From positions 1-26,176 of the IMG/VR virus record IMGVR_UViG_3300047545_000482: a stretch of 26,176 nucleotides of DNA; one strand, written 5' to 3'. Positions within the stretch are counted from its first letter, which is position 1. Each line of letters begins with the position of its first letter. Shown here in pieces: positions 2,692 through 5,102 of this stretch. Position numbers and translations under genes: made by a program. Source of the stretch: a virus (Duplodnaviria; Caudoviricetes). The notes beneath the pieces are model-generated. The model did not search any database, was not told where the DNA came from, and saw only the letters and a program-made list of their open reading frames with translations.

Positions 2692-3006
2692 CTATTGGGG
2701 CAAGTAATTTGCTAGCACCGCCGCGACCTTTTGACCGGCTAATGTGGGAGATACGGAAAGACCGTGCGGCAATTCATGGATTGAGAACTGCGAGCGAGTG
2801 CCGTCGCGCATACGAATAATGATCGTGGCGTAGGCAGATGTGCGAGGAATAGAAATCTTTGGCACCGTATAGCCCTCGACGTAAACGTCCTTTCGTGCGG
2901 CAATCTTTTCAAGCCTCCTCTGTTGGTCTAACTTTCTATTTTTGGAACGCCACCGATTGTAACTCTGCCACTTGCGGGCAGTTGGAGAAGTTAGTGATTT
3001 TTGCAT
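2692..3006 (-). CDS. hypothetical basic protein
   Basis: 104-aa ORF, Arg/Lys-rich N-terminus. Confidence 0.7.
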   Translation of the reverse strand: MQKSLTSPTARKWQSYNRWRSKNRKLDQQRRLEKIAARKDVYVEGYTVPKISIPRTSAYATIIIRMRDGTRSQFSIHELPHGLSVSPTLAGQKVAAVLANYLPQ

Positions 3007-3024
3007 GATGGGTTAATGTCTTTG

Positions 3025-3276
3025 TTAGGCCAAGTGGTCGCCAGAGAGGACGAGGGTCATGCGGGTTTTCACCTGTCCGTTTGCCAGCGTTGCCGTCCCG
3101 CCGTCGTCATCTGAGATTTCGATCACGCGCAGGTCCGCCGTCTCGACGGGCAGAATTACGCAGCCGTCAGATTCGAGCGGGTGCTTGTAGGTGTCTTTGC
3201 TGATGCAGACCGAGCGACGGCCTGCGCCTTTGGCGATGAGTTCGCCAGTGATTTTGTGGAGTTGTTTGATTGTCAT
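3025..3276 (-). CDS. hypothetical protein in cassette 1
   Basis: MTIKQLHK...; stop TAA lies in the core site (GCC TAA C); alternative in-frame ATG at 3321 inside attC1. Confidence 0.7.
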   Translation of the reverse strand: MTIKQLHKITGELIAKGAGRRSVCISKDTYKHPLESDGCVILPVETADLRVIEISDDDGGTATLANGQVKTRMTLVLSGDHLA

Positions 3277-3287
3277 GTGAAATTCGG

Positions 3288-3401
3288 GCCTAACCAAGCG
3301 GCCACAGCGAACGCTCACCATCCGTCCTTTTTCGTTCGTCTGTTCTCCGCTCGGTCATGGTTGGTTATTCGGGTGAGCGCCGCTGATCCGCGATGTTCTG
3401 C
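3288..3401 (+). repeat. attC-like recombination site 1 (114 bp)
   Basis: AAC CAA GCGG CCA CAGCG AA CGCTCACC ... GGTGAGCG C CGCTG AT CCGC GAT GTT: paired blocks separated by asymmetric unpaired bases. Confidence 0.8.
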
Positions 3402-3829
3402 AAAAGATCAGCCACCGCATCGCGGGGCGTTTTCCCGAAGCCCGCGACCGACTCTTGGAGGTTTACGAAGCCGTCGAGTGTCGCGCACCATGCGTCTCCG
3501 TCACGGAATACGTTCACCTGCGTTTCCCACCAGTCGGGAGCCGGTCCCGCGCTGCACGCGAATTGGTTGGCGCTGTGGCAGCAGTAGTCGTCATGGCACG
3601 TCCAACCGCAGCCGTAGGTCGATGTCGGAGTGCCGCAGTTAGGGCACGGTCCGCGCATCCAGTGGCTCGGCGCATGATTCCACGAGTCGAAGCGGATGGG
3701 TGTTCCGTAGCTCCATTGGTGCTTGCCGGTGTCGTAGGTTTTACGCGGAACACGGAGCAGAACCAAGTGCCCAGAGCCAACAGGCGCGGGCGTCACGTTT
3801 TCGGTCGGTTGATTTGCATTCATGGTCAT
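3365..3829 (-). CDS. Cys/His-rich hypothetical protein (possible Zn-binding) in cassette 2
   Basis: CPNCG...CGWTCHDDYCCH; starts inside attC2 and stops inside attC1. Confidence 0.7.
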   Translation of the reverse strand: MTMNANQPTENVTPAPVGSGHLVLLRVPRKTYDTGKHQWSYGTPIRFDSWNHAPSHWMRGPCPNCGTPTSTYGCGWTCHDDYCCHSANQFACSAGPAPDWWETQVNVFRDGDAWCATLDGFVNLQESVAGFGKTPRDAVADLLQNIADQRRSPE

Positions 3830-3871
3830 AGAGTTTTCTGCCGCGCCTGCGGCTCATGCACGACGTTCTCT
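3757..3871 (+). repeat. attC-like recombination site 2 (115 bp)
   Basis: AAC CAA GTGC CCA GAGCC AA CAGGCGCGG ... CCGCGCCTG C GGCTC AT GCAC GAC GTT: same architecture as attC1 with compensatory substitutions. Confidence 0.8.
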
Positions 3872-4140
3872 TCCGGCTGTCGCTGAATCGGGATTCCCGC
3901 GCGTTGGCGGAGTTCATCAGCGCAGAGTAGATAGGTCGCTGAGCGCACAGAGTTGGCTAGTGCCAGATCATCGTCACCGGCCCTACGCGCTTCGATATTG
4001 CGCTGGTTGCATTTTAGCGAGCGCGTGAGCCATTCCTGCGCCAATGCTTCCGCCTCAACGACCGGAAGAGAACAAGTCGCCCCAGCATCAACGACCTTAG
4101 TGGGGCCGCGAGATTCGGGCGGGCTGAGTTCGCTCGACAT
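3826..4140 (-). CDS. hypothetical protein in cassette 3
   Basis: Start ATG 4140 (MSSELSPP) or 4197, both inside attC3; its TGA overlaps the ATG of the next gene in the attC2 loop. Confidence 0.65.
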   Translation of the reverse strand: MSSELSPPESRGPTKVVDAGATCSLPVVEAEALAQEWLTRSLKCNQRNIEARRAGDDDLALANSVRSATYLLCADELRQRAGIPIQRQPEENVVHEPQARQKTL

Positions 4141-4254
4141 TGGATGAATCGTGATGGTGGCTTGGGTGCTGGAGGTTTGTGGCGTGTCAAAGTGCATTGG
4201 ATTTTCGAGGGTTAAAGTTTCACGTTCTGGTCGTGGCTGATCTCCACGTTAGCC
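4067..4254 (+). repeat. attC-like recombination site 3 (188 bp, degenerate or hybrid)
   Basis: AGAGAAC...CAGC ATC AA CGACC ... GGTCG T GGCTG ATCTCCAC GTTAGCC; weaker pairing and a long central region. Confidence 0.55.
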
Positions 4255-4440
4255 AAGAGCGTCCTCGGCGCGACGGCGCGCGTCTGTGTCTCCGGACGCG
4301 ATGATTTCCAGTGCCGCGCGCATCCGTGCGTTTTCGCGTTCAATTTCGCGCGCGTGAATCTCAAGCGCGGAGTATTCCGATGTGACCGCGTGGTCGGGGC
4401 GTATCGTGATCGCGTCAGTTCTGGGTGTGTCGGTATTCAT
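4249..4440 (-). CDS. small phage protein (TPRTDA-motif, coiled-coil-like)
   Basis: MNTDTPRTDA...HAREIERENARMRAALEIIA; stop TAA lies in the GTTAGCC core. Confidence 0.75.
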   Translation of the reverse strand: MNTDTPRTDAITIRPDHAVTSEYSALEIHAREIERENARMRAALEIIASGDTDARRRAEDALG

Positions 4441-4705: not shown

Positions 4706-5102
4706 TGGTGGAGGGCGAGAAGGGTTTCACTCCTCGTGTTTGAATCTTATCCTATCGCCTTCTCCACGCTCAGATAATAATTCGTCTATTTCTCCAACCG
4801 CCCCAAATTATTTCAATAAAGCGGTTGCCCGACTCGTCTGCTATCCGGCTCAAATTACGAGTATGTTGAACCATTGCCCCTATTGGTTGATGAGGCTAGT
4901 GACTCAGCCCCATGCAGTCGCGGTTAGGCGAAAGCAAGACCCATCGCGGGCTCAGGAAGCGCGAACGCCGCCCGGACTTTAGCAATGAGGTTTTTGATAT
5001 ACGATTTAGCGTTTATCGATTACCCGATGGATTATAGCGAGATCAGGTGCTCGCTGCGTGCTAACGATAGGGGATCGACTCAAGTCGAAAATGCTGCCCC
5101 CC
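4706..5102 (-). ncRNA. ssrA: tmRNA (transfer-messenger RNA), 397 nt
   Basis: 5' GGGGGGC pairs with 3' GCCCUCC-ACCA including G3.U70; UUCGAC near the 5' end; helix 2 pairs TTGAGTC/GATTCAA, CCTATCG/CGATAGG, CACGC/GCGTG; PK1-like AGCGAG/CTCGCT and CCTGAT/ATCGGG; ATAAAC-GCT resume context; tag ORF ending LAFA*. Confidence 0.93.
4924..5010 (-). other. tmRNA tag reading frame AKSYIKNLIAKVRAAFALPEPAMGLAFA*
   Basis: Translated by hand from resume codon GCT (5010) to TAA (4924): 28 codons plus stop. Confidence 0.85.

Follow-up and report, generated by a model that had tools for sequence, protein, structure and literature searches.

The window, by which we mean the whole stretch of DNA analysed, is a 26,176-base virus record whose recognised genes lie on the minus strand and which encodes pieces of DNA polymerase III alpha, a primase, a helicase, RecA, methylases and a tmRNA-like gene. 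The tmRNA-like gene (4706–5101, minus strand) scored 44.8 bits against Rfam, slightly below the gathering score of 47 (E 6e-15); besides this match, Rfam returned one chance match in the window and none on the cassette array described below. Between 6400 and 12585, the functions of DNA polymerase III alpha (PHP, exonuclease, catalytic) are spread over separate ORFs, and two LAGLIDADG-like ORFs flank the catalytic polymerase gene. No tyrosine recombinase or integron integrase was found among the 38 ORFs scanned in the 26-kb window, and predicted promoters and terminators between 2400 and 5400 stood at chance level (2 and 5 found, 2.3 and 4.0 expected).

Three attC sites share the plus strand as their top strand: attC1 at 3288–3401 (R'' 3288–3294, R' 3395–3401), attC2 at 3757–3871 (R'' 3757–3763, R' 3865–3871) and attC3 at 4067–4254 (R'' 4067–4073, R' 4248–4254). 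They were called by an ORF-blind detector, which demands AAC...GTT enclosing L boxes that pair and, on the 3' arm, two unpaired additional bases, and which correctly called the IntI1-tested TJE1 site as classical and in its published orientation. The scores of attC1 and attC2 (43.5 and 47) exceeded the best score in six shuffled windows (29); attC3, which has a long loop and a weak canonical fold, scored 28, so its score alone is not above chance. The hallmark of an integron cassette is an R'' box complementary to the R' box of the same cassette, and in the window each R'' box was the exact 7-nt complement of its own cassette's R' box (3/3), with contiguous matches of 8, 7 and 12 bases for attC1, attC2 and attC3. 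These end matches place the cassettes at 3025–3395, 3396–3865 and 3866–4248; the ends of cassette 3, at attC3, form a 12-bp inverted repeat. An exact repeat search of the window did not single out the attC sites, which have no long repeats among them. Under the clustering rule in the consulted portion of Cury et al. 2016 (PMC4889954), the sites called by our detector constitute a CALIN, with at least two same-strand attC less than 4 kb apart and no integrase nearby.

In the window sites the R''..AAC and R' GTT.. boxes, together with the inner L boxes, close an imperfect hairpin, weakest in attC3, and the extrahelical bases on the R''-L'' arm match only when the bottom strand is the minus strand. 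The R' boxes of attC1 (GTTCTGC) and attC2 (GTTCTCT) deviate from the consensus GTTRRRY, which those of attC3 and the attI-like site fit; GTTC-type R' boxes are frequent in our bacterial comparison set as well. Folding of the DNA as attC, a check suggested in the initial annotation, held best for attC2, whose energy minimum coincides with the canonical fold (P 0.88, z -2.1), whereas the canonical fold of attC1 lies 1.8 kcal/mol above the minimum (P about 0.05) and that of attC3 is not the minimum-energy fold either (P 0.0006). A 22-codon ORF (3290–3358) lies wholly within attC1 on the bottom strand, and the loop sequence there pairs with the R'' arm in an alternative hairpin, which prevails over the canonical fold and might reduce excision.

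All genes of the array lie on the attC bottom (minus) strand, antisense to the usual cassette orientation as the initial annotation had it, and the array reaches further left than the interval of 3288–4254 first given for it, to an attI-like site at 3012–3030. This site, on the plus strand, is hairpin-less and consists of TAAT, a 6-nt spacer and GTTAGGC, with a predicted crossover at 3024/3025; its box complements the R'' of attC1. The cassette 1 gene (83 aa, 3025–3276, minus strand) starts just outside attC1 and has its TAA stop on the attI crossover. The cassette 2 gene (154 aa, 3365–3829, minus strand) takes its head, ..PVGSGHLVL, from attC2, crosses into attC1 with Asn at 3395–3397 and finishes in the tail NIADQRRSPE and a stop, encoded by the bottom strand of attC1. 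The cassette 3 gene (3826–4197, minus strand; 123 aa from 4197 or 104 aa from 4140) starts in attC3, reads Asn at 3865–3867 and finishes in attC2 with the tail NVVHEPQARQKTL and its stop. A single site, attC2, holds the tail of the cassette 3 gene, the head of the cassette 2 gene and the overlap between the TGA of the former and the ATG of the latter (ATGA). In both genes the read-through crosses the R' GTT/AAC in frame as Asn. The other two array crossovers (4248 and 3024) read as TAA stops rather than Asn, the outermost of them ending an upstream phage ORF (63 aa, 4249–4440, minus strand) that had no match in family searches.

These heads, tails, overlap and Asn codons are present in the sequence as first described, and two further points of that description changed. 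The start of the cassette 3 gene does lie in attC3, probably at 4197 rather than 4140, because most of its 45 homologs have about 25 more N-terminal residues. The stop-start pair of attC1 (TAA-CCAACC-ATG) exists, and its ATG at 3358 opens only the 22-residue peptide, which ends at R''; coupling of this pair to the next gene was rejected, the ATG being out of frame and Met 3276 being the alignment start of the cassette 1 gene in 15/15 homologs. Among the cassette 3 homologs P0053–P0097, about 25 mutually unrelated N-terminal residues precede a common segment, and these residues apparently come from the long attC loop. A 259-nt contig from an RNA run spans 3105–3363 with 7 differences, and such contigs reveal neither strand nor transcription.

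Directly after the attI-like site, in the slot that intI occupies in relatives, lies what we call the anchor gene (2692–3006, minus strand), which encodes a conserved protein of 104 aa from no known family. It has 13 other homologs and no match in Pfam, PHROG or NCBIfam; its predicted model (pLDDT 81, pTM 0.35) had no PDB or viral-fold match at E 0.001 or better, and an Atlas search gave no usable match. The protein is predicted to consist of a long helix of basic character, three strands and, at the C-terminus, a helix that bears a near-invariant SPTLAG motif. Nineteen viral loci were picked by this protein alone; attC lay upstream in the same orientation in 16 of them and in the opposite orientation in none. 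Of 16 loci inspected by eye, 14 have a site similar to the attI-like site 19–44 nt ahead of the ATG of the anchor gene. The downstream ends of arrays are formed by a hairpin-less top-strand site, TAAT-N5/6-GTT, resembling a Shewanella attI printed in PMC9892861. Its spacer is 6 nt in the window versus 5 in most others, and the 6-nt type recurs in other phages.

The slot after the attI-like site differs among relatives. No integrase was found in the five anchor-gene contigs tested, three of them at least 90% complete. In a comparison of 10 array-bearing contigs, a similar attI-like site preceded intI-like genes in G002, G003 and G010. The gene of G010, directly after the site and on the coding strand, is an integron integrase (308 bits, over the integron cut-off); those of G002 and G003, also directly after the site and on the coding strand, scored 194 bits, under the cut-off, with integron integrase as the best family, and are likely intI. 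On locus L208 (7014–9051), the reverse strand of G010, the integron integrase sits between the reversed array and a P27-like small terminase gene, and one further attC-like site lies beyond the terminase gene. A second type of small basic gene follows attI-like sites in other arrays (L001, 6340 onward; L096, 230 onward).

Relatives among viral contigs came from an alignment search; with a single protein as query, none was recovered. The cassette 2 ORF had 18 homologs that covered 62–99% of the query; in 12 of the 18, the crossover column was Asn and was followed by unrelated tails. Its first 23 residues are identical in three unrelated proteins, with divergence just past the Val at R''. The predicted sharing of attC-derived termini was found: three unrelated proteins have the head in common, and the body occurs with at least four other tails after Asn.

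Among 160 loci oriented by protein alone, at a detector score of at least 36, the bottom strand was the coding strand at 30 sites and the opposite strand at none, with 1 in shuffles. Loci from the protein, motif and anchor-gene searches were pooled; with near-duplicates and sites within 150 bases of a locus end left out, they provided 131 distinct attC junctions, spread over 52 loci. Genes were called as the longest open frame, and a junction without an open frame of 40 codons was counted as having no gene. The frame bias suspected at the crossover AAC was evident: 94 junctions were read through as Asn and 9 in other frames, 16 had stops on the crossover and 12 had no gene, compared with 1599 Asn, 2117 other frames, 125 stops and 1380 without a gene at other AAC triplets on the same strands. 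Asn accounted for 91% of read-through AACs at crossovers versus a codon background of 43%. Where loci had been selected with a motif that takes no account of the crossover, 56 of 66 junctions read Asn; where the anchor gene was used for selection, 20 of 35 did. Asn formed the majority in 35 of the 52 loci. The loci are related, so these counts are not independent and a nominal P value overstates their independence.

A stop lay within attC in 74 of 79 Asn junctions, many tails being merely Asn-Ala-stop, and stop and start overlapped by 1 or 4 bases in 26 of the 79. An ATG inside the core opened a long frame at 87 of 131 phage sites (92 of 130 in the set compared with bacteria) versus 15 of 95 bacterial sites. 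At R'', where heads stay with bodies, the frame was mixed (43/27/17).

For the bacterial control, the arm motif of the relatives matched 96 genome loci, which gave 95 distinct sites; 55 of the 80 matches listed were titled Verrucomicrobiota. Asn was read at 7 of the 95 sites, and 73 of the 95 had a top-strand ORF ending at R''. The same attC family is thus classical in chromosomes and reversed in these phages, and a verrucomicrobial host for the phages may be suggested, indirectly, by the shared motif. Bacterial sites had early stops in the Asn frame almost as often (71 of 95) as phage sites did (108 of 130). The attC family itself thus accounts for part of the frame pattern, and the in-core stops are weakened as a phage-specific signal.

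Evidence of exchange came from the arrangement of cassettes. In 56 neighbour pairs, R'' matched the R' of its own cassette 4/4 in 42, versus 2 for the in-array partner. Tail swapping, one of the initial predictions, was seen directly between reordered arrays of one phage: G002 and G003 have common flanks, differ in cassette order and content and show three clean tail swaps. The body family of cassette 2 carries four further tails in relatives, identity dropped immediately past the AAC in 10 pairs, and breaks fell at AAC/GTT triplets even where the attC were dissimilar. Groups with a shared body had different downstream arms in 6 of 29 cases and the same neighbour in 23 of 29, the latter mostly near-duplicate contigs. 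One contig of run X2, which may be the source sample, forks at 3021, with an attC-like arm beyond the fork; contigs of run X3, which belongs to a different study, diverge at positions 3395, 3398 and 3764. Two near-identical phages, L210 and L211, have arrays unlike in order and content, in which several cassettes look, by eye, like DNA methyltransferases.

A second class of breaks lies at the other box. In 27 pairs and 9 of 31 groups, near-identical cores adjoined unrelated bodies and the break fell at the R'' GTT; among them, L199 carries a 90% identical copy of the attC2 core on unrelated bodies. Bottom-strand shuffling cannot explain breaks at R''; top-strand recombination there is 1,000–10,000 times rarer, according to the relevant part of PMC5027507. 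Members of the cassette 2 family also occur free of attC, and the box pairs and box positions found in the family are of at least four kinds. A tree of 27 homologs, in which support was low, one locus was left out, L003 looks like a chance match and L090 like a recombinant, rejected a single clade for the 11 box-flanked copies (p-AU 0.00017), a hint that these copies do not form one clade. Together, the R'' breaks and the varied box pairs hint that genes were captured repeatedly, with cuts at the two boxes.

We interpret the locus as a phage integron array with no integrase in the contig and with its genes on the attC bottom strand, likely reshuffled by an integrase borrowed from the host; we put the probability of this reading at about 0.78. 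IntI cuts the bottom-strand AAC of R' in the systems described in PMC5027507 and PMC7439510, so with genes on the bottom strand each cassette, read in the phage direction, opens with a whole attC. That attC would first give a tail and a stop to whichever gene lies upstream and would then often give a start and head to its own gene, whose body would end in AA. Bodies in relatives mostly put this AA at codon positions 1–2, or have a stop on AA, so that Asn is completed by the C of whichever cassette follows and reading meets the usual early attC stop. We infer that selection maintains this common frame convention, since reading in another frame would often continue past the hairpin and enter the following gene. 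Shuffling by the borrowed enzyme, presumably still active, would swap short C-terminal tails, leave heads with bodies and retain all genes on the phage transcript, from which they would presumably be translated. The attC-coded tails are probably tolerated by-products, not functional modules. The initial description of attC as a dual-coded connector is upheld by the frame bias and the tail swaps and is narrowed by starts within attC at 87 of 131 sites and tight stop-start pairs at 26 of 79. The reversed cassette design itself is real and general within the phage group.

Four other explanations were weighed against this array of reversed, exchangeable cassettes. That the window holds ordinary bacterial cassettes, with genes on the plus strand or none and the minus ORFs as shadows, is barely credible: of the 21 body-homolog rows listed, 9 leave the 143-codon plus ORF (3455–3886) open and 12 break it with internal stops, so it was rejected as a conserved gene, and the minus frame is conserved, even in cassette 2 family members from phages without attC around them, which confirms the minus strand as the coding strand. 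The cassettes could instead be reversed as we describe and their frame bias passive, a product of AAC abundance, attC composition and shared ancestry, without interchangeability having been selected for. The early stops at 71 of 95 bacterial sites fit such an account, as do the many tails of only Asn-Ala-stop and the relatedness of the loci; we nevertheless regard it as unlikely, given the 43% Asn codon background against 91% at crossovers, the recurrence of the Asn excess in three differently chosen sets and the mixed frame at R'' (43/27/17).

The remaining two explanations concern the recombination. The array in the window might be a frozen relic of formerly mobile cassettes that no longer recombine, as the lack of an integrase in the contig, the weak canonical folds of attC1 and attC3 and the 6-nt attI spacer would suggest. 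All end matches are intact, however, the 6-nt spacer type is found in other phages, and the X2 branch at the attI-like site and the X3 divergent ends at the attC1 and attC2 boxes argue against a relic, which we consider about as improbable as a passive bias. Exchange might also be driven by a recombinase other than IntI, or else by recombination, homologous or illegitimate, of hairpins that resemble one another; this would account for breaks at R'' as well and for anchor-gene phages without intI. Such an explanation is more doubtful still, since breaks fall at AAC/GTT even between dissimilar attC, intI adjoins attI in relatives and the window sites have no long repeats.

Going beyond the preferred reading of an array reshuffled by a borrowed integrase, we tentatively consider, at well under even odds, that the phages run an integron lineage of their own, in which cassettes are built as well as shuffled, cores and bodies are joined at both boxes and the ~100-residue anchor-gene protein recruits or redirects the host integrase. 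A break at R'' would then swap the native start of a captured gene for an attC-coded head, and a break at R' would swap its end for an attC-coded tail. If this were true, cassette genesis, a long-open question, would become directly observable and testable.

The array resembles known integron arrays (Nivina et al. 2016, PMC5027507; Cury et al. 2016, PMC4889954, as far as the consulted sections describe them) in its attC hairpins, which have R and L boxes and carry additional bases on the R'' arm, its simple attI-like site at the array head, its matching cassette ends and, in phage relatives, a bottom-strand intI beside attI. Classical cassettes carry a promoterless top-strand ORF ahead of attC, whereas the phage genes lie on the bottom strand, co-directional with intI, and the phage attC stands ahead of its own gene and itself supplies starts, stops and protein termini. 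The newest phage cassette would come last on the transcript, and no Pc-type arrangement is implied. Compared with a complete integron, the window lacks intI next to attI, which is present in G010 and likely in G002 and G003. The verrucomicrobial chromosomal arrays share the arm motif of the phage relatives' attC and are opposite in layout, with genes on the top strand and a bottom strand without Asn bias.

Clusters of attC without integrase in phage genomes were described by Qi et al. 2023 (PMC9892861), who report that 5 of 6 tested phage CALIN sites recombined with IntI1. TJE1, the one we checked, is classical with top-strand genes, in contrast to the bottom-strand genes of the window; the parts of that paper available to us, on CALINs of virulent phages, contain no antisense genes, frame bias or attI-like site. 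Synthetic attC built into lacZ and into linkers between peptides (Nivina et al. 2020, PMC7439510) likewise code and work as a site at once, according to the sections consulted; those sites were engineered, whereas the phage dual coding is natural and recurs across many contigs. IntI is described as joining attC to any GWT triplet at attG sites (bioRxiv 10.1101/2022.09.11.507474), a possible route to the capture of gene ends, although the preprint, in the portion seen, concerns single chromosomal insertions through the bottom strand and does not describe cassette building. We found no account of reversed, frame-biased phage cassettes in the open literature, to which our search was confined, and on present sequence comparisons the window array would be an integron with reversed cassettes, a variant not previously described there.

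The locus thus points to integron machinery repurposed by phages with a mirror-image cassette, in which the recombination site is at once a gene boundary and a protein terminus. Integron scans that assume a gene-then-attC order will misassign the genes of reversed cassettes, and attC-coded ends explain odd shared termini on many unrelated hypothetical phage proteins. Free and cassette-borne copies of one family, together with one core on unrelated bodies, provide natural material on the making of cassettes.
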